Source of the DNA: Escherichia phage EcoIv28_Lewi
Direction: 5' to 3' (one strand)
Length of the DNA stretch: 48,435 bases
Sequence record: OX461087
The notes beneath the pieces are model-generated. The model saw nothing but the letters and a program-made list of their open reading frames with translations. It was not told where the DNA came from and made no database searches. Below are positions 1,699 to 20,947 of the stretch, in pieces (position 1 is the stretch's first letter; each line of letters starts with the position of its first letter). Made by a program: the position numbers and the translations under genes.

Positions 1699-1905
1699 AT
1701 GCCAAGACCACGACGCGAGCCGATGGACATTATCACCAGCATTGTGGAGAAGCGGCAGCCGCTGACACTCCGTGATGTTCGCTACTTTGCCCGTTGCTAT
1801 GTGGCACTGGCTGATATGCCTAAAGATGATATGTATGATTTGATTCGGGCCAATTTTAATGTTGATGAAAATAATCGGGTGACGATGAAGGGGGATGAGA
1901 AATGA
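1699..1905 (+). CDS. hypothetical protein (68 aa)
   Basis: Track ORF 1663..1905 trimmed to ATG preceded by AAAGGAG RBS. Confidence 0.5.
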   Translation: MPRPRREPMDIITSIVEKRQPLTLRDVRYFARCYVALADMPKDDMYDLIRANFNVDENNRVTMKGDEK

Positions 1906-2414
1906 GGCATAGGAGAGATGAGCCGAGCAGGGAGTTTATATTGAGTTACCTTGACTACAATCCACTAACTGGGGAATTTAAATGGCTAAAGACAAGGAAT
2001 AGGATTGCAGAAAAAGGGAGTGTGGCTGGCTACTTAAAGCCAGATGGATATGTGCAAATAATTCTTTGCGGTAGGGCTTTTCTTGCTCACAGATTGGCAT
2101 GGATATGCATTCATGGTGCACCAGCAAGTGAAATGATTGACCACATCAATGGCATTCGCAATGACAACAGGGCATGCAATTTAAGGGAGGCCAGCAAATT
2201 TGAGAATAGCCATAACAAAGCAATGAACAAAAACAACACTAGCGGTATCAAGGGGGTTAACTGGAGTTCATCACACAACAAGTGGCATGCAAGAGTTGGA
2301 GTAAATGGCAAAAGATTCACAGTTGGTTACTTTTCCGACATAAGAGAAGCGGAAGCAAAAATAAAAGAATTCAGGAGAATGCATCACAATGAGTTCACAA
2401 ATCACGGGCGATAA
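1902..2414 (+). CDS. HNH homing endonuclease with C-terminal AP2 domain
   Basis: Motif DHINGIRNDNRACNLRE (HNH) followed by an AP2-like segment (GIKGVNW...WHARV...GYF...EAE); ATGA overlap with upstream gene. Confidence 0.8.
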   Translation: MRHRRDEPSREFILSYLDYNPLTGEFKWLKTRNRIAEKGSVAGYLKPDGYVQIILCGRAFLAHRLAWICIHGAPASEMIDHINGIRNDNRACNLREASKFENSHNKAMNKNNTSGIKGVNWSSSHNKWHARVGVNGKRFTVGYFSDIREAEAKIKEFRRMHHNEFTNHGR

Positions 2415-2913: not shown

Positions 2914-3219
2914 ATGTTCACAGACATCACCATCGCGCAACGAAACGCGAACTATACCAACATTGCTGACACTTCAGCACAACTGGTATCACTAAACAGC
3001 GACGGCAGCGCAGTGCTGAAAATCGGCACCGAAACGGCGCAATTCATCGTGCAGAATCTGTCACAGGCGAACGCAAAGCAGGTGCTGATTAGCACGGGTA
3101 GCGTGCTGTTTCTGGCAGGTAATTACAATGCACCGAATCTTGAGTGTTCACTGGTGCGCATCGTTGAAGCTACGGTTGAGGAATCTGTTGATGAGCCAAC
3201 AACATTGCCAGCAGAGTGA
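2914..3219 (+). CDS. hypothetical protein (101 aa)
   Basis: Track ORF in the same operon. Confidence 0.5.
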   Translation: MFTDITIAQRNANYTNIADTSAQLVSLNSDGSAVLKIGTETAQFIVQNLSQANAKQVLISTGSVLFLAGNYNAPNLECSLVRIVEATVEESVDEPTTLPAE

Positions 3220-3351
3220 GTCATCAAAACCATCTGCATGGTGTGAGCAAATGGAGCGCAATGCGAAAGATGGTGATGAGGCGTATGCTTATTTTCAGCT
3301 GAAGCAGATGTGGAAGCAGCGAGAAAGTTCTGAGCAGGCCAGTTAAACATA

Positions 3352-3376
3352 AAGCCCCATTGCGGGGCTTTTTTCA
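3352..3376 (+). terminator. rho-independent terminator
   Basis: Hairpin AGCCCC-ATTG-CGGGGCT followed by TTTTTT at the convergence of the plus and minus blocks. Confidence 0.6.
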
Positions 3377-3715
3377 TCCCTTAAACTTTATCCAGCCGAA
3401 CATCCTGACACCAAGCCACATAACGCCAGCCCTCAGCGATGACACTCCGCTATCCTTCAGCGCCTGCCTGAAGCAATCATCAGCGAAATTCCTGTCCGAA
3501 TGGGTGGCGTACAGATAATCATGAACGGCTGCTGCTTTTTGCCCCACGTCACCAATAAAAGCGAACAGGTAAGGAAGTCGCGGGACACTGGCAAAATCAG
3601 TGCGAAATCCTGCTGGCACTTTTATTTCCTGATGCCGAAACTCATAGATTAGCGGGTCAACCAGCGTCCACGTTGAGTTTTTGTTCAGCTTGACGATAAG
3701 GTCGGATTTGAACAT
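3374..3715 (-). CDS. DUF1353-like protein
   Basis: Motif VPAGFRTDFASVPR typical of DUF1353; last gene of the lysis cassette. Confidence 0.55.
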   Translation of the reverse strand: MFKSDLIVKLNKNSTWTLVDPLIYEFRHQEIKVPAGFRTDFASVPRLPYLFAFIGDVGQKAAAVHDYLYATHSDRNFADDCFRQALKDSGVSSLRAGVMWLGVRMFGWIKFKG

Positions 3716-4204
3716 TTATTTTTGTCTCCTTGTCAGTGATTCGTATTGCTTCTGGCAGGTCAATCCTGCTTCTCTTGCCCTGTCAGCGTAATCTGCCAGC
3801 TGTCTATTTCTTTCGATAGACTTTGCGAGCACGTCCGCAAGCAAAACTCCGGTTTCTGCGGCTGGATTGCCAATGGACTCAGCGGTGGAATATCCGACGA
3901 GCTGCTTGCGGATATTTGCGAGCTGTTGCTGCAACCTGCCAGACTTAGCAGCAGCATTAATAGCATCATTGCGCGCAGCATCAATCCTTTGCTGTGCGTC
4001 GGCCTGAATCTTTTGTAGTTCCGCATTGCGTCGTTGCTCCTCTTGTTCGTCTGCGGCCTTCTGTTCTGCAATTGCTTGAGCTTTGCCTTCTGCGTATCGC
4101 TGGTCGCCGTAGCTGATGATTTCGCTGCGCGCCCACAGCGCGCCAGCAGCAACAATTATAATAATTGCCAGCGGTCGCCAGTGTTTAGCGAGAATCGACA
4201 TCAT
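3716..4204 (-). CDS. Rz: i-spanin (Rz-like)
   Basis: N-terminal transmembrane segment then a long charged coiled coil; directly downstream of holin and endolysin. Confidence 0.7.
   Translation of the reverse strand: MMSILAKHWRPLAIIIIVAAGALWARSEIISYGDQRYAEGKAQAIAEQKAADEQEEQRRNAELQKIQADAQQRIDAARNDAINAAAKSGRLQQQLANIRKQLVGYSTAESIGNPAAETGVLLADVLAKSIERNRQLADYADRAREAGLTCQKQYESLTRRQK
3760..3981 (-). CDS. Rz1: o-spanin (Rz1-like lipoprotein) embedded in Rz in another frame
   Basis: Embedded ORF with signal peptide and lipobox (LSLAGC) followed by a proline-rich tail (SDIPPLSPLAIQPQKPEF). Confidence 0.65.
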   Translation of the reverse strand: MLRAMMLLMLLLSLAGCSNSSQISASSSSDIPPLSPLAIQPQKPEFCLRTCSQSLSKEIDSWQITLTGQEKQD

Positions 4205-6346: not shown

Positions 6347-7290
6347 TGAGCTGAAAGCCACTTATCTCTTGCTGATATCATCCTTTCAAGAGAGGATTCA
6401 AGCATGATTACATTGCCATTTTCATCTAACATGCATGGTGTTTGCGCACAGTGGCAGCGATAGCGATTTCCGTCCTTTGAGTAAAACTCCTCTACTTCCT
6501 CTGGGCTAAAAGCGCGTGCGTGTCTGGCTGAGTGTGTGGCGCGGGTGGTTTTTAATAATGCCGAAACCCAAAAGAGCGCACTATTTAGCCCCAAAATAAT
6601 CTTTGATTCCTGAACTTCGTCAGACTGCGACTTGCGTAAAATTCCTGTAAGCTCGGTTTGGGCAATATTTTTTGCTCGTGATTCACTTACACCGACGCGC
6701 TTAATGATGTCTGACTCAATATCTCTCGGATTAGAACCAACGGCGATAGCATTCATGATCACTTGAGACAAATCATTTCTCGCCGCATCGCCAATGCCAA
6801 CCCAATCACTGTAAGTGGTGGCATTGGCAATAGATAGCCGCTGCAAATATGGCTCCGAGTAAATAATGTCTGCAATTGAACGGCGCTCAGCATATAGTGG
6901 AGACATGGCTGCCAGTTGTTGTTGCGCCTCGACCGTACCAGCTGAATAGGCGTCAGAGACATAAATTGACATCCAGAACTGACCTGCATTCATCGGCTGT
7001 GTGTCGTCAAGCAGGATTTCATCAATTAGCTGTTGTAATGCCTCATTGAATTGAGCTGCCCGAGCAGCTGAAAAATCATACCTGTAACCATAGGCATCAA
7101 TGGAGTTAATTGCGGCAAATGGGATTGACCTGAATAAGTCTATGACTGACGATTTAAGGCGCTTGTATCGCGCCTCAATCTGTTTGTTTGCCTTGCTTAG
7201 TCTCCTGTTAGCTCCAACAGGGTCTGTTTTGCTGGTTGGTATTTTCGGACCAACCAGTCTGGCACTAACCTTAAAGATTTTGATTTTCAT
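6325..7290 (-). CDS. head morphogenesis protein (SPP1 gp7 / Mu F-like minor capsid protein)
   Basis: Resemblance to the phage head morphogenesis family; directly downstream of portal; start trimmed to ATG overlapping the portal 3' end. Confidence 0.7.
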
Positions 7291-8674
7291 CGTCAGGATT
7301 ACCCTCAGTGACGATCTGAAGTTCTTCAATCGGCTCCATACCAACCATGCCTCTGGCTTCATCCACGGTCAGCAACGCAGATTGACCAGCATCAAAGAAC
7401 GACTTGTTCGCAGTGGCGAGCTTAGTCAGCAACTCGGCTTTATCCAGTTCAGATGGGGCAAGAAGGTCATCCCACTTAACCTTGTAGCCGTTTGCCGGGG
7501 CTTTATCGACAATGCCGAACTGAATCATGCGCTCAACAAACATTGAAATGACATAATCAACCCACGTCTCGCGGCGCTGTTTGGCAGTCATCGCCTCCTG
7601 CATCTTGTCTTCATCGCTCGCAAGGCGTCCAGTTTGCTGGCCAAAAATGACGGTGAACGGAAGTGCCATTGATGCAGCGAACTGATTGGCAGCCACTTCC
7701 CATGTTGGTTTCGGGTCAGCTGGCGTTACGGATAACACCTGAGTCTCTGCGCCCATGCTAAATAGTGCGGCGTCAATGCCAGAATTCAGCATCTCGATGT
7801 TATCGTTCATGATATCAATAAGTTCATCCTGAGATACACCCATCGACTGCGCAAGGCTTGCTGGTGTTACGTTGTCCTTCGTATAGTTAACGGCAAGTTG
7901 ACGGCTTGCGTTCTTCAGGAAGCCTTCCGCAGAACTACCGGAAACTTTAGCCATGTCGATAAGGCTGTTGTAGCCAGCGCGTAGCATCGGGATGCCACTG
8001 AACATACTGCCATCGAAGCTGCCCTCTGCCAGAATGATAATGCGGTCAGGATGAATCTGCACGGAACGCTCAGGTTTACCATCGCTGTCGAAGTCTTCCA
8101 CGGCGCTTTCCTGATATTCGTACATCTCAGGCATTCCGTAGTCTTCGCTGGTTTCGTCGTTATTCCACGCGCTAACGCGGAGCTGTTCTTCCCATACCGG
8201 AATGAAGCGAACGATGGATTTATCTTTAATGCGGCGGGTTTTGGTGACGTCTACAGGCTCACTCCACTGCTTACCATCGCGGATTTGCAGGATGACAGCA
8301 GAGTAACGGTTGATGGCGTTGCGCTTGTCAGCTTCCTTGATGAACGGGTATGCGCGCTTCATCATGTCATTGATGGACAATTCCCACGGCGTTGAGTTCT
8401 TGTCATCCTCTCCATCTTCGACAACTTCTGGGTATTTCTGCCAGCATTTATTAATAATGCGGTTAATGCCAGCGGCGGCGGCTGGGTGTCGCTCGTATGC
8501 ATAGCGGAACATCTCGGCGGTGATTTCCTGCGGGTAGCCCAGCTCCTTCCACATGAACTCACGTTTCTGGTCCAAGTTCTTCCCACCAGCACAAAGCCGT
8601 TGTTGCTGAAGCGCCCGGTTATTGTTCGCCACGCGGTCGCGTATGTAGGCGTTTAGTGCATCAATTTTTGACAT
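7271..8674 (-). CDS. portal protein
   Basis: 467 aa, acidic C-terminus, position upstream of head morphogenesis gene. Confidence 0.8.
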
Positions 8675-8709: not shown

Positions 8710-8729
8710 TATAGCATGGGGATAGTGCC

Positions 8730-9107
8730 TTATTTTGATTTGCCTGATGACTTGGATATGAAATCCTCTAACTCTCCATCGCTAGTCTTCTGACGGTTAA
8801 GGAAAAATCTATCTGCTCCGAACTTACCCCGCTCCCTTTCATGTATCAGGTTACCGGTTTCGCGGATGGTTTCAGGCAATCCCTGCATGAATATGGCGGG
8901 AATGAACATGACCAAAATCAGAATTACTTTCCACCAGACTGAACAGAAATACTGAGCCTCGAGAATGTTTTTCTCTGGATGCCAGTAATATTCAATCTTT
9001 GCGCCAAATCTCTGCTTCCTCCTTGGTAGCATTTTGTTATGCTGCCTCCGCGTGACTGGTATTCTTATGAACCCATCATTACATGGATTTTTATATTTAT
9101 AAACCAT
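8730..9107 (-). CDS. hypothetical membrane-associated protein
   Basis: Track ORF 8730..9155 trimmed to ATG with GAGGTG RBS; hydrophobic segment. Confidence 0.45.
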   Translation of the reverse strand: MVYKYKNPCNDGFIRIPVTRRQHNKMLPRRKQRFGAKIEYYWHPEKNILEAQYFCSVWWKVILILVMFIPAIFMQGLPETIRETGNLIHERERGKFGADRFFLNRQKTSDGELEDFISKSSGKSK

Positions 9108-9281
9108 AATCACACCTCTATTTAAAACATTGATAAAGCAAGCATGGAACAACACCAGCTACCACAGCGAAAAATGAACCAACTATAAAGTGAATCCATC
9201 TTGGTTCATTCACTCCGGCAGCCATAGCCCACCAGAACATAAAGTTAAATGGAATCCAGAACGACCAGAATAGCGCCATCA

Positions 9282-9500
9282 CTACACCTCATCATCAACG
9301 AGCGATCTGAACCATGCGGGATATGACTTCGACCCGAGTTTATGGTCAATCTTCTGAATGTAACGCGCCGCGTCATCCAGTTTGTCGGAAATATAATAAA
9401 GCGACTTTCTTGCGCCAATAAGCATGACAGCGAATATCAGCATCACAATCAGGTGCGGGTTGATGATGCAGAACAGTATTGTTTTGACAGCTTTCATCAC
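9282..9500 (-). CDS. small membrane protein (72 aa)
   Basis: Track ORF; one hydrophobic helix. Confidence 0.4.
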   Translation of the reverse strand: MMKAVKTILFCIINPHLIVMLIFAVMLIGARKSLYYISDKLDDAARYIQKIDHKLGSKSYPAWFRSLVDDEV

Positions 9501-10010
9501 TCAACCTCCACTAATCATGTGTGATAGTCTCTCGCGTCCGGATATTGCAGCAATCTCCGCCTCTTCAATCGTCTTGTAGTAACCAAGTGAGTGTTGCTTC
9601 TTGTTAAAGAAAATTGTTGCGCGATACAGCCCTGACGGCCTATGTAGTGAGACTCCTTTAATTCCTGTGTGATTATTCTTGTATGGTCCTCGCGTTTTTG
9701 CATGATTAATTTTGCAATCAGTCATTTTCCTGCACCCGGCTGGCGTTATAGATAAATCACTCCATTTAGCACTAAATGGGTTTTGTGAAATAGAATAAAC
9801 ACTCTGTCCTTCAGGCGGAAATTCTCCAGTCATATAAAGCCACGCCAGTCGTCTTGCGGTGTATTGTTTTCCCAGGATTGTTATTAAGTAACAATACTTA
9901 GTTATGCTCCCAGCTAATTTCCCGACTCTGCCACCACGCAACCAGATGAAATCACCAGACTCAGGATAATACCTTAACCATGCCTTTAATTCTTTCTGGG
10001 TAAGCATCAC
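9501..10010 (-). CDS. degenerate HNH-AP2 homing-endonuclease paralog
   Basis: N-terminus and AP2-like C-terminus match the other HNH genes, but the DHING..DNR..NLR motif is absent. Confidence 0.6.
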   Translation of the reverse strand: MMLTQKELKAWLRYYPESGDFIWLRGGRVGKLAGSITKYCYLITILGKQYTARRLAWLYMTGEFPPEGQSVYSISQNPFSAKWSDLSITPAGCRKMTDCKINHAKTRGPYKNNHTGIKGVSLHRPSGLYRATIFFNKKQHSLGYYKTIEEAEIAAISGRERLSHMISGG

Positions 10011-10176
10011 TCAATCTCCTCACCATTAACCCAGCGTTGCAGGACTTCGATTAGTTGCGCGGCTTGTCGCTTGTCAAGCTGAACCCAGTCGTCACATTGC
10101 CTTAAATTTATTACTAGTTCTGTATTTATATACAGACTGTGGCATTCATTTGTTTTTTCAATAATCATCACTCACC

Positions 10177-10584
10177 TCAACAAAGTTCACCATCAGTTAT
10201 CATCAACAACCTCTGCCATTTAGCTACCGGCTTACACAGTTCAGATTTCAATCTGCTTAACGAGACTGTGATATCAGGCCACTCGGTAAACGGAACAAAT
10301 CGCACAAATCTATAATCAGCACCAGCCCAGTGCCAGCCAAGCGTATAGTCGATGTATGTGCCGTCTTGCTGCATATTGATGTAATGCGCCGTTGCGCCAT
10401 CATCATTAATCATAACCACCTCAACCACTGCGCACGAACTACCATCCCGTGCACGGTTCACTGCATTCAGGTGACAGGCATGATTGTACAGTCCAGTTCC
10501 GTCTATGAATGATATATCAATCTTTTTGCTGTATTTCTTATCAGCAGCATCGCGGATTATTTTCTTTAATTTATTCCTGAACAT
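10177..10584 (-). CDS. hypothetical protein (~135 aa)
   Basis: Track ORF 10177..10629 trimmed to ATG overlapping upstream gene stop. Confidence 0.45.
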   Translation of the reverse strand: MFRNKLKKIIRDAADKKYSKKIDISFIDGTGLYNHACHLNAVNRARDGSSCAVVEVVMINDDGATAHYINMQQDGTYIDYTLGWHWAGADYRFVRFVPFTEWPDITVSLSRLKSELCKPVAKWQRLLMITDGELC

Positions 10585-10780
10585 AATTAATCCACCATGC
10601 GGCAATTGCTGAGAAAATCCACAGGGCAATAAAAAGACGGAAAACCTGCCAATTTAGAATGTCATCAACACTTGGCGCTTCCCATCTAATCAACCAGATA
10701 AGTGGGAAAGCAAGCGCAAGCGCAATGGTGTACTTAATACCAATAAACAGAAAATCCCTTGCAAAACCTCTCATAATCAC
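10571..10780 (-). CDS. small membrane protein (69 aa)
   Basis: Track ORF, two hydrophobic segments. Confidence 0.4.
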   Translation of the reverse strand: MIMRGFARDFLFIGIKYTIALALAFPLIWLIRWEAPSVDDILNWQVFRLFIALWIFSAIAAWWINYVQE

Positions 10781-10983
10781 CCTCTCAAAAAATCATTCTT
10801 GCAGCAGATACCCTTGTAACCGCGCTTCTCTTGCAGGTTAACGAAAACATCATCAATTACGCGCAGCAGGAAATCCTCGTCGATATCATACCGACGGCAA
10901 ATCACATCATCAGGCACACCAGCCCGCGCCAGTGAATAAACCTGCTCTTTCTCCTCCTGTGTGAATCCTGCATAGCTGCGCAT
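10777..10983 (-). CDS. hypothetical protein (~68 aa)
   Basis: Track ORF 10777..11043 trimmed to ATG with GGAGAT RBS. Confidence 0.45.
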   Translation of the reverse strand: MRSYAGFTQEEKEQVYSLARAGVPDDVICRRYDIDEDFLLRVIDDVFVNLQEKRGYKGICCKNDFLRG

Positions 10984-11014
10984 AGTGATATCTCCGGTAA
11001 GCCTGATGTAGATT

Positions 11015-11110
11015 ATACTATGCGCTCGGTGTAGATTGGTCAAGTGTGGTGATGCAGGTTTATCAACATTAATAATAAATATTGACGTAGAAATGGTGGT
11101 GATGTAGATT
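11015..11110. promoter_or_regulatory. divergent promoters
   Basis: Minus: TTGACC-N17-TAGTAT (11043..11015); plus: TTGACG-N17-TAGATT (11082..11110); extra TGTAGATT copies nearby. Confidence 0.45.
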
Positions 11111-11505: not shown

Positions 11506-11536
11506 AAGCCCTCGAATGAGGGCTTTATTTTTATCT
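11506..11536. terminator. bidirectional rho-independent terminator
   Basis: Hairpin AAGCCCTC-GAAT-GAGGGCTT plus T-run between convergent genes. Confidence 0.6.
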
Positions 11537-12955
11537 CCTGCGACGGATTAGCATTCCGCTACCGCGTTGAACGATGTGGTCTCCAAGTCCATAGCGTAAA
11601 CTATCAATCGCGTGATTGTATTTATCAACTATGTCAGGGAGTATGTTGCCTGTTAACTTATCAACCTTATAGCTATACATTGTCATCTCTTCAATGACGT
11701 GTTTACATCTTGAGTGTACGTAAATCCTGTCGCACCCACGAAGCCACGTAATCCCGTCCTCAATGCTCCCAGGCCATTTTGCGCACGGATGAATATCGAA
11801 TCCAGATCGGCGTATATGGCTTATTGTTTCAGGCCTTGCGCAATCCCCATACCATCTGTACTTCTCTGAATTTGGGAATGCTGAGCGCATCGCTTCTGGC
11901 GTGTCAGTTATCTCAAGGCCAACCTTTGCAAAGTCACGATAGATATATAGATTTCTGCGCCCATCTCCCAAATCTTCTACATATGATTCTGTTGCTGCGG
12001 TTGCATCCTGAGAAAAACCAAAGTCAATGCCATAATATGGACCTCCCCATTCTGGAGATGGCTCGAAGTCCAGCGTTTGCCATTTTCCGCCAAGCACGGC
12101 CTCTTCGGAACGCTTGTTGAATAACCCTTCATACACCCACAGATAGCGATCATAATCCACCGCCTTCATCTGGTTCATGTGCTGTTTAAGTTCTTCCGTG
12201 AACCACGGGTTGTGGACGTAGTTAACATTAACAACAACGATGTCATCATCCTGATATATGCCATCAACCATCTTGTCGATGTAAGGCTCAACAAAGTTAG
12301 TCCACGTTGGGTCCGTCTCTTTATTAGGGTTAAAAACAATGATAATTTCAGAGCCAGCCGCACGGACTGTTGGGATAAGCGTATCCCATGACACCTGACT
12401 GATGTTTTCGGATTCTTCACAGAAGACATCCGTAAGGCCAGCCATGCCCTTGATTGCGGTTATGTTTCGCCAAAGGCCACGAAAAACAAACTTTGATCTC
12501 GTTGTGTGGTGTGTTATCTCGCCATCCACGCAACGATATTCCTGAGTGTGCCCCTTCCTGTTTATCTCATCGACCAGCTCGGCATAGCTTGATTCTTTGA
12601 TTGAGTTCTGTATCTCACGGAAGCATCCGACGCGGCTGTTGCGGAATCTTGCCTTTTCTATCAGGTAAGACACGACGTTAGCCGTCTTTCCGCTTCCCCT
12701 ACCACCATAGAACACTTTGAAGCGACGAGGGTAAAGCAATAGCTCCATCCGCTTTGGTATCAGAATTGTTGGCTCTTCGTTTGTTTCCGAGACACCTGTT
12801 GCTGTCATTTTCAGGCGCTTTATAACATTAGGCGTTCCATCAGCAAGAAGTTTATCAACAATGCCAAACACAGCAGACTCAGGCTTTGCAGTTGAGTTGC
12901 CAACTACCTGTTCAAGTTTTTCGATTGCCACACTTGAGAGTCTTTTTCTAGCCAT
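11531..12955 (-). CDS. terminase large subunit
   Basis: 474 aa; Walker A-like GGRGSGKT; ATPase plus nuclease architecture. Confidence 0.9.
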   Translation of the reverse strand: MARKRLSSVAIEKLEQVVGNSTAKPESAVFGIVDKLLADGTPNVIKRLKMTATGVSETNEEPTILIPKRMELLLYPRRFKVFYGGRGSGKTANVVSYLIEKARFRNSRVGCFREIQNSIKESSYAELVDEINRKGHTQEYRCVDGEITHHTTRSKFVFRGLWRNITAIKGMAGLTDVFCEESENISQVSWDTLIPTVRAAGSEIIIVFNPNKETDPTWTNFVEPYIDKMVDGIYQDDDIVVVNVNYVHNPWFTEELKQHMNQMKAVDYDRYLWVYEGLFNKRSEEAVLGGKWQTLDFEPSPEWGGPYYGIDFGFSQDATAATESYVEDLGDGRRNLYIYRDFAKVGLEITDTPEAMRSAFPNSEKYRWYGDCARPETISHIRRSGFDIHPCAKWPGSIEDGITWLRGCDRIYVHSRCKHVIEEMTMYSYKVDKLTGNILPDIVDKYNHAIDSLRYGLGDHIVQRGSGMLIRRRR

Positions 12956-13463
12956 GATTACAAAACTCCCCGTGATTTTTCTCTCTTTCTTCCATTATCT
13001 TTTTGACTGCATCTTCAATGTTGGCGAACCGGCCAAGGTTAACCATCCTGCCATTTATATTTAATCTTGCCATCCACTTGCATCTTGATTTATCCCAATA
13101 CACACCCTTAACCCCTGATGTGTTGTTTGCCTGTAGCTTTTTGTTGTAACCATTTTGCTGATGGTCAGCCTCTCGCAGATTAACAAAACGATTATCAAGC
13201 GTATTGTTGTTTATGTGGTCTATTTCTTTTTCAGGCCAACTACCAGTCATGTAAAGCCAAGCCAGCCTGTGCGATCTATACCACTTTCTTCCAAAATGAA
13301 TATAGTGATACGGTCGCTTGCTACCAACGGAGCCGCATAATTTTATTGTTCCTGCCGGCTTCCCGGGTTTAGCCCTTCCCTGCTTGTGTGGGTTTTTCCA
13401 TGTAAAAATTCCGGTTTCAGGATTGTAATCAAGGATGTGTTTTAATTCTGCTTGCGTAAGCAT
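12948..13463 (-). CDS. HNH-AP2 homing endonuclease between terS and terL
   Basis: Motif EIDHINNNTLDNRFVNLRE plus AP2-like C-terminus; stop overlaps terL start (ATGGCTAG). Confidence 0.8.
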   Translation of the reverse strand: MLTQAELKHILDYNPETGIFTWKNPHKQGRAKPGKPAGTIKLCGSVGSKRPYHYIHFGRKWYRSHRLAWLYMTGSWPEKEIDHINNNTLDNRFVNLREADHQQNGYNKKLQANNTSGVKGVYWDKSRCKWMARLNINGRMVNLGRFANIEDAVKKIMEEREKNHGEFCNHG

Positions 13464-13562
13464 ATATAGATTCCTCATCAGGGCATCATTGAAGTGAATG
13501 CGGCAGGCGGTGATGAGTCGCTTTTCGGGTGCCCCCTAGCCGCATTGATTATTATAAATCAG

Positions 13563-14006
13563 TTACTGTTGCTGCTCCAGTAATTTCTCCAGCCGCTCAA
13601 GTCTCGCGGCGAGTTCGGTTAACTCTTTCACGTCAAGACCAACCTTAATCATAGACACAACCTGAGACGCAACATCAATTGGTAGTTCTCCACTGGAGAC
13701 AGATTGAATGACGTCCTCTATCTGCTCAACTGGAGTGGCATCTTTGCGGTATTTAAAATTAACCGGAGGTGCCATGCTTTTTTGCACGGGGCTGATGCGC
13801 AGGAATATCTCCTTCAGCATCTGCACGCCTTGAGTCGGGTTTTCCTCAGTCATCCTGATTGACGTCCTGATGAATGCGTCAAGGAATTCCTCCTCTCCAA
13901 GCCCGCATCGCTTTAATGCTTCAATAAGCCTGTTTCTGTAGCTTAATCCTCTGCCAGCAGGCTGGTATTCAGAGGAAAATTTCATTACAGGGTTTGGATT
14001 AGCCAT
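13563..14006 (-). CDS. terminase small subunit (putative)
   Basis: 147 aa immediately upstream of terL, coiled-coil C-terminus. Confidence 0.55.
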   Translation of the reverse strand: MANPNPVMKFSSEYQPAGRGLSYRNRLIEALKRCGLGEEEFLDAFIRTSIRMTEENPTQGVQMLKEIFLRISPVQKSMAPPVNFKYRKDATPVEQIEDVIQSVSSGELPIDVASQVVSMIKVGLDVKELTELAARLERLEKLLEQQQ

Positions 14007-16806: not shown

Positions 16807-17079
16807 ATGAGCAATCACGGTGTATTATTAAAGCGCAAATTAAACAAACATGGTCGTGGTGCTGGGTGGGTTGCATCATCAAAGTCAACCACTGGGTACT
16901 ACGGTGTTGATTACCACAAGGCATCAAAAAAATTCAGAGCGAGAGTGATGGTACTCAAGAAGAGATATGAGCTTGGCATGTTTGAAACGGCAGAGGAAGC
17001 AAACGCTGCAGTTTTGAGAGCCAAGGAATGGTTATCAGAAAATCCTCATGAGAAATTTGAAACAGAGTACGAGGTTTAA
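16807..17079 (+). CDS. stand-alone AP2-domain DNA-binding protein
   Basis: GYYGV...FRARV...LGMFETAEEANAA pattern like the AP2 tail of the HNH genes, with no nuclease part. Confidence 0.6.
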   Translation: MSNHGVLLKRKLNKHGRGAGWVASSKSTTGYYGVDYHKASKKFRARVMVLKKRYELGMFETAEEANAAVLRAKEWLSENPHEKFETEYEV

Positions 17080-18633
17080 ATGATTACAGCTCAAGATATA
17101 TTCAACGAAGCAAGGGAGTTAAAAGTATCTCCGGCTCGCGTTGCCTTCCATCATGGCATGATACCAAGCTCAAATATGTGGCTTGACATCAAGGAAGGCA
17201 AGGAGCGTGATGTAACGTACTCAGAAACAGAACTCACCAGTGAGCACCGGACTGATTTGCTGTCTCGTTATGCAATCGCTGCAGCTCGTGCCGTTCAGTT
17301 CCCAATAAATACATCGTTCATGCATTTACTTGGGTGCGTTGCCAGCGCAATGACGAGAAACTTTAGCGTTGAGTATTACCATTCAGAACTTCCAGTTTCT
17401 CTTTACGTGGTTACTTCTCAGCCTCCATCAGCAGGGAAAACCGCCATCAACTCAATGCACATGAATCCGGTGAAGATTGAATATGACAACCTTTCCAAAA
17501 AGATGGAAAAGCAGATCATAAAAATAAATCTTCGCATTGAAGAGTTGATGAAGGCATACAAAGAGGCAAGCAACCAAAATGCAAAGGCACTAATCGGCGA
17601 TGATATTGCTCGCGAAAAAGAGAAGTTGGAGGAGCTTTATACAATTACATATCCACTGACGGACGCAACGCCGGAGGCTGTTCAGCATCAAGCCATTCAT
17701 GAAGGTGGATTTTTTAATCTGATAAGTGACGAGGCAAGCGTTCTTAACACATGTCTTGGCCTCTCTTACGGAAAGGAAGGTGGAAAGGCAAACGCAGAAG
17801 TCATCCTGAAGGGATGGGATGGAGGATTCATTGGTTCTGCTCGTGTTGGTCGTGGCGTTTCATCTGGTTACGTGCTTGGAAATATAAGTGTGATTGCTCA
17901 GGATGAAAGTATTGATGCCATTCTTGCCGCTGGCGACAGGGGTAACGGTCTTTCTGAACGTTTCCTGATGTTGCGAGAGCAATCAATGCTTGGCTATCGC
18001 GAACACTGGGACATGGTTAATGACTGCCCTGTAAGCAAGCCAATGCCAGACAGCTTGAGGTCGGAATATGCAAGATTTATACATAATGTTGTGTCAGCAG
18101 AAAAAACAAAACTGACGCTTCACAATGACTCAGCAAGAATGATCGGCCTGTTACGAAATCAGTGGGAGAAAAACTTCCTTCCCGGTGGTAAGTGGGACCA
18201 CGTTCTTCTTCGTGGCGCGATGGGTAAAGCTGATAAGCAAATAATCCGTCTGGCAGCAATATTTCACGCTGCTGAAAACTGGTGCGATGGAGGAAGGCGT
18301 TCAAAGATTATCGGTGAAAATGAAATTAGTCGCGCCATCAGTGTTTATGATGCACTGACAAAAACGTTCACTGATGCTGTTGAATCAAATGGATATGCTG
18401 GTGAGCGTTCTGAATTTGATGTTGTTGCAGAAAAGCTACGCTCTGCCGCTCAGAAAGGGAAAAATAGCGTAACGGTGAAGTGGCTTTATGATTCACTTAA
18501 AAACGTACGACCATTCAAAGGGATACCTAAAATTTACGACCGACTCAGGTCAAGTGTATTACCATCTCTGGAGGAGGATGGTTACTGCGTATTTATCGGA
18601 AATACTGTTCACATAAATCCGAGGTTGAAATGA
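17080..18633 (+). CDS. P-loop NTPase, putative replication protein
   Basis: 517 aa, Walker A-like PPSAGKT; first large gene of the replication block. Confidence 0.5.
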   Translation: MITAQDIFNEARELKVSPARVAFHHGMIPSSNMWLDIKEGKERDVTYSETELTSEHRTDLLSRYAIAAARAVQFPINTSFMHLLGCVASAMTRNFSVEYYHSELPVSLYVVTSQPPSAGKTAINSMHMNPVKIEYDNLSKKMEKQIIKINLRIEELMKAYKEASNQNAKALIGDDIAREKEKLEELYTITYPLTDATPEAVQHQAIHEGGFFNLISDEASVLNTCLGLSYGKEGGKANAEVILKGWDGGFIGSARVGRGVSSGYVLGNISVIAQDESIDAILAAGDRGNGLSERFLMLREQSMLGYREHWDMVNDCPVSKPMPDSLRSEYARFIHNVVSAEKTKLTLHNDSARMIGLLRNQWEKNFLPGGKWDHVLLRGAMGKADKQIIRLAAIFHAAENWCDGGRRSKIIGENEISRAISVYDALTKTFTDAVESNGYAGERSEFDVVAEKLRSAAQKGKNSVTVKWLYDSLKNVRPFKGIPKIYDRLRSSVLPSLEEDGYCVFIGNTVHINPRLK

Positions 18634-20299: not shown

Positions 20300-20947
20300 A
20301 TGAAACAATTAATCGTTACAATAGAGGGTAAGAAATGGCTATCACCATCAAGAAGTGCGAGGTTTGCGGAAATGAGTTTATCGGAACTGCAAAAGCAAAA
20401 TGTTGCTCAGGAAAGTGCAGGGTTAAAAAATGCAGGAACCAAAAGAAAGTCACACATTTCACAGGAGAGGTTAAGGGAGGTTCTTGATTACAACCCTGAT
20501 ACTGGTTATTTCACTTGGATTGTCAGGCTTGGAGCAAGGACTCAGATAGGTGGAAAGCCAGGTACTGTTGATGCTGGTGGTTACCTTAAAATAGCGGTTG
20601 ACGGAAAGGCTTTTATGGCGCATCGCCTTGCTTGGATTTACTTTTATGGAGGAGATATATCAAATTCAGAAATTGACCATATTAACGGCAACAGGATGGA
20701 TAACAGGATATCTAACCTTAGGTTAGCTAACAGAAGTGAAAACAATTGGAACCAAAAGATAAAAAATAGCAACAACTCAGGGGTCAAGGGTGTTAGTTGG
20801 GATAAGGGAGCCAAAAAATGGAGAGCTCAATGTATGGTTAATGGAGTGAAGTATTTCATTGGGAGATTCAATAATATTTCAGATGCAGAGCAGGCTGTGG
20901 TTTCTTTTTGTAGAAAATTCCATGGTAAATTCGTAAACAACGGGTGA
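20300..20947 (+). CDS. HNH-AP2 homing endonuclease (start uncertain; possible frameshift with upstream zinc ribbon)
   Basis: Motif EIDHINGNRMDNRISNLR plus AP2-like C-terminus; conserved LDYNPDTG begins ~57 codons into the track ORF. Confidence 0.65.
   Translation: MKQLIVTIEGKKWLSPSRSARFAEMSLSELQKQNVAQESAGLKNAGTKRKSHISQERLREVLDYNPDTGYFTWIVRLGARTQIGGKPGTVDAGGYLKIAVDGKAFMAHRLAWIYFYGGDISNSEIDHINGNRMDNRISNLRLANRSENNWNQKIKNSNNSGVKGVSWDKGAKKWRAQCMVNGVKYFIGRFNNISDAEQAVVSFCRKFHGKFVNNG
20335..20487 (+). CDS. small zinc-ribbon ORF (~50 aa) out of frame with the downstream HNH domain
   Basis: ATG after GAGGG RBS; CEVCGN...CCSGKC pattern; ends where the conserved HNH N-terminus begins in another frame. 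Confidence 0.35.
   Translation: MAITIKKCEVCGNEFIGTAKAKCCSGKCRVKKCRNQKKVTHFTGEVKGGS

Follow-up and report, generated by a model that had tools for sequence, protein, structure and literature searches.

We describe a gene in Escherichia phage EcoIv28_Lewi (sequence record OX461087) that is probably the catalytically inactive descendant of a free-standing homing endonuclease of the I-HmuI type, HNH(HNN)-AP2, kept by selection as a working protein. It lies on the minus strand at positions 9501–10010 of the 48,435-nucleotide stretch of DNA analysed here, which we refer to as the window. The gene is under purifying selection, and its slowest-evolving part, measured as dN between subclades, is the former catalytic site.

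The Gene and Its Domains

The listing of ORFs in the window gives 169 codons for the minus-strand ORF 9501–10010, from a GTG at 10010 to a TGA stop at 9501–9503. The GTG marks the maximal ORF only. The probable start is the ATG at 10007, which yields a protein of 168 amino acids and is favoured because homologues begin at the equivalent codon (ML/MI-TQ); residue numbers refer to the 168-aa version throughout. A GAGGAG Shine-Dalgarno sequence is found 5–8 nt 5' of the gene start.

The N-terminal I-HmuI-like domain (residues 1–60; 9828–10007, minus strand) contains LxYxPxSGxFxW strands and an ARRLAWLYMT helix; in I-HmuI, this scaffold contacts DNA. The former HNH core, referred to here as the ex-HNH segment, comprises residues 61–93 (GEFPPEGQSVYSISQNPFSAKWSDLSITPAGCR; 9729–9827, minus strand), as placed by alignments and by mapping of I-HmuI residues. 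A variable linker follows (residues 94–112; 9672–9728, minus strand), which holds an insertion of ~9 residues and is recognised by low pLDDT, high dN, and the profile alignment. The remainder is a C-terminal AP2-type DNA-binding domain (residues 113–168; 9504–9671, minus strand).

Kinship with Intact HNH-AP2 Genes

The protein aligns over its full length with the products of three intact HNH-AP2 genes of the window, at 1902–2414 (plus strand), 12948–13478 (minus strand), and 20300–20947 (plus strand). The initial annotation had called it a fourth homologue of these, and several comparisons agree: BLASTP against the 12948–13478 gene gives E = 3e-18 at 32% identity, PHROG 99 (phrog_99, "HNH endonuclease") matches at E = 1.2e-33 in two stretches that flank an unmatched core, and hhalign of the profile of the nuclease-dead clade described below against a profile of intact relatives gives a probability of 100% (E = 2.6e-42). 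In this last alignment the HNH core is paired column by column. The same annotation had the catalytic motif replaced by unrelated sequence, which is not what we find; position for position, the segment can be aligned with the HNH core, allowing for insertions. Descent and the overall fold of the N-terminal and core scaffold are shared with I-HmuI-type HNH(HNN) endonucleases.

Pfam HNH_3 matches the three intact window genes at E = 7e-11 to 3e-15 (42–56 bits), whereas it has no match in the 9501–10010 protein even at E ≤ 1. The match of this protein to Pfam AP2 (PF00847; E = 3.7e-6, 27.6 bits) is under the gathering cut-off of 33.3, as are those of the intact paralogues (20–27 bits). The PADLOC and NCBIfam libraries gave no matches to it.

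Identity to the three intact window genes is 25%–33%, and the closest intact relatives, at 36%–40%, occur in other, unrelated phages (P0018, P0019). The word "paralog" used in the initial annotation is therefore too loose: the family homology it implies is sound, but judged by these identities the gene is a family member and not a recent in-genome duplicate. An origin from an intact HNH gene of the same island was also considered. L088 carries the nuclease-dead gene (3001–3504) together with an intact HNH_3 gene (3699–4181), two ORFs downstream and just before the portal gene, and the two are only 21% identical, so this origin was rejected. Candidate sources in Skate and LPSTLL were set aside as well; their intact genes are 36% identical but are sited in the tail-gene region. 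Membership in the "IPA-HNH" group of ICP1, atypical HNH-AP2 proteins that are likewise without a Pfam HNH_3 match, found no support from hhalign against ICP1 gp59 (probability 0.2%).

The three intact HNH_3-AP2 genes are wedged among conserved genes. That at 12948–13478 is found between ORF 13563–14006, presumed by position only to encode the small terminase, and the large terminase gene, with which it has an 8-nt overlap; that at 20300–20947 is flanked by ORFs matching primase- and helicase-annotated genes of related phages. The intact genes are 25%–43% identical among themselves and with the nuclease-dead gene, and since mutual identity is only this high, they were probably acquired separately. 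A scan of all window ORFs with the family HMM also picked out ORF 16807–17079 (plus strand; E = 3e-12, AP2 part only), whose 90 aa hold little beyond an AP2 domain and which lies directly 5' of a 517-aa gene (17080–18633). Shigella phage DS8 has an identical copy (100%), 23 GenBank phage records cover 80% or more of the ORF, and the counterpart in Salmonella phage Vi II-E1 carries a pseudogene annotation. The ORF represents a fifth family fragment and a second nuclease-less AP2 protein in the genome.

Loss and Rewriting of the Catalytic Site

The profile of intact relatives matches the I-HmuI structure 1u3e at E = 3e-7, and in the printed alignment D74-H75, N87 (the Asn of "NLR"), and N96 of I-HmuI equal D87-H88, N100, and N109 of the 12948 paralogue. 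In I-HmuI, H75 acts as general base, the metal is bound by D74 and N96, and N87 braces the hairpin. Carried over to the 9501–10010 protein by profile alignment, the metal ligand D74 corresponds to Y71, the general base H75 to S72, and the hairpin brace N87 to D84. These substitutes are themselves conserved in the clade, S72 and D84 being invariant and Y71 nearly so. The metal ligand N96 corresponds to H102 in one subclade only; the clade alignment places this residue within a variable stretch of ~19 residues and has E, K, or N there in other subclades. Among the core positions kept relative to intact HNH proteins are N76-P77 and L85, the L of NLR. Two residues are inserted ahead of the core and ~9 past it, and the linker with the latter insertion stands where the beta-beta-alpha-Me motif has its metal-binding helix.

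The catalytic residues of an active site-specific endonuclease are thus absent by alignment, and the missing motif reported in the initial annotation is confirmed both by these substitutions (D74/H75/N87 to Y71/S72/D84) and by the HNH_3 result. Because D74, H75, and N87 are substituted and the N96 position is variable, we infer that the beta-beta-alpha-Me nuclease mechanism is unavailable to this protein. Nor are the residues merely shifted: a scan of all six frames of 9451–10060 for D/E/N/H-H...N...N/H patterns revealed no conserved shifted or hidden HNH motif. The sole in-frame HNH-like pattern, N101-H102...H122, is not conserved in the clade and is located in the variable linker.

We also rejected a frameshifted pseudogene, as the alternative-frame ORF at 9515–9703 is not HNH-like and accounts only for the frameshifted variant P0015. 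This frame (minus strand, shifted by one base) is open for 62 codons across the AP2-coding part. P0015, which is metagenomic, has one A missing from the GCAAAAACG run (~9693–9701) and reads into it; this could reflect a sequencing error in the homopolymer or a genuine truncation that removes the AP2 domain.

Predicted Structure

AlphaFold2 models built from an alignment including intact relatives (pLDDT 80) and from clade members only (pLDDT 76) have the same topology: an N-terminal sheet and helix, a two-strand hairpin in the ex-HNH segment, a low-confidence region at ~95–112, and a three-strand sheet with a long helix. The predicted hairpin strands are residues 71–73 and 86–88 in one model and 69–72 and 85–88 in the other. 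The linker, where the metal-binding helix would be expected, has a pLDDT of ~50. Foldseek matched only the AP2 part of the model, a predicted three-stranded sheet packed on the C-terminal helix that can be superposed on solved AP2 domains.

A Nuclease-Dead Clade and Its Outgroup

A search of 5.8 billion proteins yielded 17 clusters with 55%–98% identity to the 9501–10010 protein and no HNH_3 annotation. Past these there is a gap in identity, and the relatives at 40% or less all carry HNH_3; precomputed PF13392 assignments are absent in P0001–P0017 and present in all of P0018–P0022. Neither the D-H dyad nor a Pfam HNH_3 match is found in any clade member. By tblastn against GenBank phages, the closest relatives are six records from four Klebsiella phages (BUCT610, ZCKp20p, RCIP0103, and RCIP0071) at 58%–59% identity, with nothing closer.

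Every clade member has the rewritten core G[ED]FPPxGQNVYSISQNPFSxKWSDLSI[ST]P[AS]GCR, the densest run of invariant positions in the clade alignment. Its invariant polar residues are S72, S74, Q75, D84, S86, C92, and R93. An outgroup, P0023, came from a profile search covering 1.84 billion cluster representatives; this protein is 40%–45% identical to the clade members tested and 43% identical to the window protein. It has the 2-residue insertion and "QNPF..KW" and is without D-H, yet it keeps the Asn of "NLR," and looks like an earlier branch of the nuclease-dead lineage. The AP2 domain, on the other hand, is to judge by its residues not degenerate, because P0018–P0020, the nearest active relatives, have the same AP2 subtype (GV.LHK..G.YRA..).

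The D-H dyad has been lost independently elsewhere in the family, in P0142 and in the first modules of the tandem proteins P0040 and P0097, whose second modules are intact. P0142 is another stand-alone AP2 protein. P0035 has a degenerate HNH_3-like module without D-H joined to a C-terminal region that, judged by eye, resembles Endonuclease VII-type HNH, and P0026 has degenerate HNH_3-like modules in repeat. Dead HNH_3 modules would seem to have been reused repeatedly within the family.

Three clade copies are disrupted: in ZCKp20p a stop codon replaces the Cys of GCR, in P0015 an A5 run is one base short, and P0016 is a truncated copy. Sequencing error may lie behind some of these. In ZCKp20p (L002, 2004–2516), the in-frame stop splits the gene into two annotated "hypothetical proteins." RefSeq labels gp09 of BUCT610 (L001, 2004–2516) "HNH endonuclease" despite the missing catalytic residues, and such labels on clade proteins are probably wrong with regard to activity.

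Selection on the Gene

Selection was estimated from a codon alignment of 14 coding sequences by the method of Nei and Gojobori, that is, from pairwise counts and not tree-based codon models. Pairwise omega is 0.07–0.18 for all pairs with unsaturated dS, to be read with the caveat for pairwise selection estimates that recombination is frequent at this locus. A pseudogene is expected to drift to a pN/pS ratio of 1. Pooled over five phylogenetically independent pairs, and with p referring to a test of pN/pS below 1, the ratio is 0.165 for the whole gene (p = 2e-68), 0.215 for the N-terminal domain (p = 2e-22), 0.105 for the ex-HNH segment (p = 1e-15), 0.30 for the linker (p = 4e-5), and 0.098 for the AP2 domain (p = 7e-33). 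Between the two main subclades, dN is lowest in the ex-HNH segment (~0.1) and amounts to 0.25–0.47 in the N-terminal domain and the AP2 domain; in the linker it exceeds 1. The comparison of dN/dS among homologues that the initial annotation had proposed thus indicates a constrained gene. It is one that has lost its catalytic residues and is under purifying selection across 55%–98% identity, with an outgroup at 43% at the same locus.

These values bear directly on the possibility, also raised in the initial annotation, of a decaying homing endonuclease. Degenerate, truncated HNN-AP2 genes in the Xanthomonas oryzae phages Xp10, OP1, and Xop411 have been read as stages of decay (PMC2248197), and a functionless remnant of this kind would account for the lost catalytic residues, for the three disrupted copies, and for the lack of the gene in close relatives; a degeneration series is, moreover, on record for the family (PMC2248197). 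The likeness extends to intact copies that persist in the same genome, and to a loss of endonuclease function, predicted here from the residues. But pN/pS is far below 1 overall and in the ex-HNH segment, and the reading frame has its full length. Members as little as 55% identical have the same substituted motif, and an HNH-less relative at 43% identity occupies the same locus. The Xanthomonas remnants, unlike this gene, are truncated fragments and not full-length proteins conserved across a diverged clade under strong purifying selection. We reject decay because of the pN/pS values and the conservation of the substituted motif across a diverged clade, and regard it as hardly credible.

Locus, Distribution, and Cassette Exchange

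The window belongs to a group of ~45–48-kb enterobacterial siphophages around Shigella phage DS8 (Deseoctovirus), Skatevirus, and Shuimuvirus; DS8 is 90.7% identical over 60% of the window's first 25 kb. The nuclease-dead gene sits in a run of tightly packed small minus-strand ORFs, with the large terminase gene (11531–12955) and the portal gene (7271–8674) on either side. Pattern matches point to terminator-like hairpins at 11525–11506, just after the large terminase gene, and at 8710–8689, just before the portal gene, and these bracket a mosaic island of small ORFs (8730–11043). At the upstream end of the island there is a promoter-like site (11015–11043, minus strand), likewise a pattern match only.

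All clade members with sequence context, including the outgroup P0023, have the gene between the large terminase and portal genes. Their phages are DS8-, Skate-, and swi2-like enterobacterial siphophages and related Klebsiella phages, with two types of terminase (Terminase_3 and Terminase_6N). The nearest active relatives, in contrast, are scattered over other positions and phage types; active HNH-AP2 genes occur at many positions in many types of phage, whereas the nuclease-dead gene occupies only a single locus within a single group of phages.

Within this group its presence is patchy: of the 212 GenBank phage records matching the window's first 25 kb, only 6 carry a clade member. Its flanks (9301–9510 and 10005–10077) match 44 phage records at 80%–99% identity in which the gene is absent, and HC6 has an unrelated 61-aa ORF between the same junctions. 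From this sporadic distribution, and because another small ORF replaces it in close relatives such as HC6, the gene is dispensable. Similarity to gene-bearing phages begins and ends at the ORF ends (breaks at 10010 or 10077, and at 9494), and similarity to the gene-less HC6 resumes at 9507. Sporadic presence among close relatives and boundaries at gene ends are what is seen of mobile homing endonuclease genes. In L006, a contig from IMG sample 3300045988, TerS-TerL is 99.5% identical and the nuclease-dead gene 83%. Vertical co-divergence with the adjacent portal gene was rejected: identities of the two genes are only weakly correlated (r = 0.31), and the nuclease-dead gene has therefore been exchanged as a cassette.

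Both edges of the cassette carry the 8-mer GAGTGATG. At the left edge (10005–10012, minus strand), the stop codon of an upstream 54-aa ORF (10007–10171) overlaps the start of the gene (…GAG TGA TG…), which suggests translational coupling; at the right edge (9495–9502, minus strand), the stop of the gene abuts the start of ORF 9282–9500. A further copy at 10166–10173 (minus strand) makes three consecutive junctions with this 8-mer. It consists of a TGA stop overlapping a GTG or ATG start, with GGAG ahead, and has 6 copies in the window against 1.8 expected. As a speculation, such junctions could provide micro-homology for the exchange of small-gene cassettes.

This behaviour raises the question of whether the gene is still a selfish mobile element, either with a non-canonical active site in the replacement motif or as a targeting subunit for an HNH nickase in trans. 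In that case, the purifying selection would be upheld by homing or marker exclusion. The sporadic distribution, the cassette edges at ORF ends, and the discordance of identity with the flanks (L006; portal) would all fit, as would the status of the ex-HNH motif as the most conserved segment, rich in invariant polar residues. In the tandem proteins P0040 and P0097, a degenerate HNH_3 module is followed by one that is intact, and the window itself has three intact HNH-AP2 genes. Yet no His/Asn general base and no conserved metal ligand is left in the protein, and a variable, low-confidence insertion replaces the beta-beta-alpha-Me helix. Nor is there a consistent intact HNH partner, L087 and L091 having none nearby, and ordinary phage mosaicism, perhaps aided by the GAGTGATG repeats, explains the cassette behaviour without homing. 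On balance we consider a selfish element rather unlikely.

The constant position between TerL and portal would also be expected of an accessory factor of DNA packaging or head assembly that acts without catalysis, through contacts with terminase or portal. HNH proteins encoded beside terminase genes take part in packaging in HK97-like phages, and roles of terminase-adjacent HNH proteins in packaging have been discussed (PMC3592412, PMC10448857); the hyper-conserved ex-HNH surface is of the sort that an interaction surface would present. Against this, the gene occurs with both Terminase_3 and Terminase_6N, its similarity is discordant with that of the portal gene, and sister phages manage without it. 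The packaging HNH proteins are of a different HNH subfamily and require nuclease activity, and the terminator-like hairpins bracket the island, which may be a separate accessory unit. Such a packaging role appears very unlikely.

Discussion

Of the explanations weighed, we favour an inactivated HNH-AP2 homing endonuclease that has been retained for its binding to DNA. Its N-terminal I-HmuI-like scaffold and C-terminal AP2 domain are both kept. Ser has taken the place of the general-base His, Tyr that of the neighbouring metal-binding Asp, and Asp that of the structural Asn; the region of the metal-binding helix is now a variable insertion, and the replacement motif QNVYSISQNPFSxKWSDLSIxPxGCR evolves more slowly than any other part of the protein. 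Equipped with two DNA-binding modules, the protein is predicted to bind a specific extended DNA site without cleavage. It seems fairly likely that it binds such a site without cutting and acts by occupancy, for instance by regulating phage transcription or by blocking another nuclease or protein, and the retooled ex-HNH surface might brace the structure or offer a new site for interactions. The suggestion in the initial annotation of an endonuclease retooled as a DNA-binding protein fits in so far as purifying selection acts on both DNA-binding modules, the residues for catalysis have gone, and the models retain the I-HmuI-like and AP2 folds; DNA binding itself is a prediction from the sequence and the models.

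Several observations count against this explanation, namely the sporadic presence of the gene, the three disrupted copies, the Pfam AP2 score under the gathering cut-off, the discordance with portal, and the sharp boundaries, the last two being the pattern expected of an element that is still mobile. The ex-HNH motif, moreover, is so extremely conserved that a purely structural role would not predict it. One might suppose instead that the replacement motif is a newly evolved functional site on the old nuclease scaffold, either a non-canonical catalytic centre or a docking surface. In the docking variant, the nuclease-dead shell would occupy a specific DNA site or hand it over, examples being protein-based immunity against related active homing endonucleases or the recruitment of a nickase in trans. 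A new functional site in the motif would explain how a "dead" selfish gene can be both mobile-looking and strongly constrained, though we think it distinctly unlikely.

On the strength of its residues, the gene descends from the HNH_3 family but does not belong to its functional members: three defining features were tested for and not found. Compared with I-HmuI-type HNH-AP2 proteins (HNH_3 + AP2, PHROG 99), it is without the Asp-His dyad, the structural Asn, and the metal-ligand Asn, has no HNH_3 match, and has core insertions of 2 and ~9 residues.

In WhiA, a bacterial regulator derived from a LAGLIDADG endonuclease, and in the LAGLIDADG intron maturases, the endonuclease fold has been kept, catalysis lost, and nucleic-acid binding selected. 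The evolutionary route is the same as that proposed here, while their fold and ancestry are different and their roles are cellular or in intron splicing. Another case is CapR, encoded by the Vibrio cholerae satellite PLE, a repressor made from the DNA-binding part of T5orf172 homing endonucleases (PMC8096241). Like CapR, the nuclease-dead gene would encode a homing-endonuclease-derived protein without nuclease activity in a phage-related genome, with a DNA-binding role that is here inferred. CapR, however, belongs to the GIY-YIG/T5orf172 superfamily, consists of the DNA-binding domain only, and has had its binding and repression demonstrated experimentally. The nuclease-dead protein keeps the whole scaffold with a rewritten catalytic site, and its function is a predicted one.

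Domesticated or inactivated homing endonucleases are thus known from other nuclease families, and the HNH_3-AP2 case is newly described here; we found no description of a conserved nuclease-dead HNH_3-AP2 lineage in the literature searched. Free-standing homing endonuclease genes are usually expected either to keep cutting or to rot. This gene would represent a third outcome, in which the catalytic site of an HNH-AP2 protein has been rewritten to a more conserved motif that is held at one locus in diverged phages. Plant AP2 factors have been suggested to derive from the HNH-AP2 family (Magnani et al. 2004, as cited in PMC10448857). If the protein does bind DNA, it would be a phage-internal parallel to the proposed HNH-AP2 origin of the AP2 transcription factors of plants and apicomplexans, and would offer a tractable system for the domestication of selfish nucleases.
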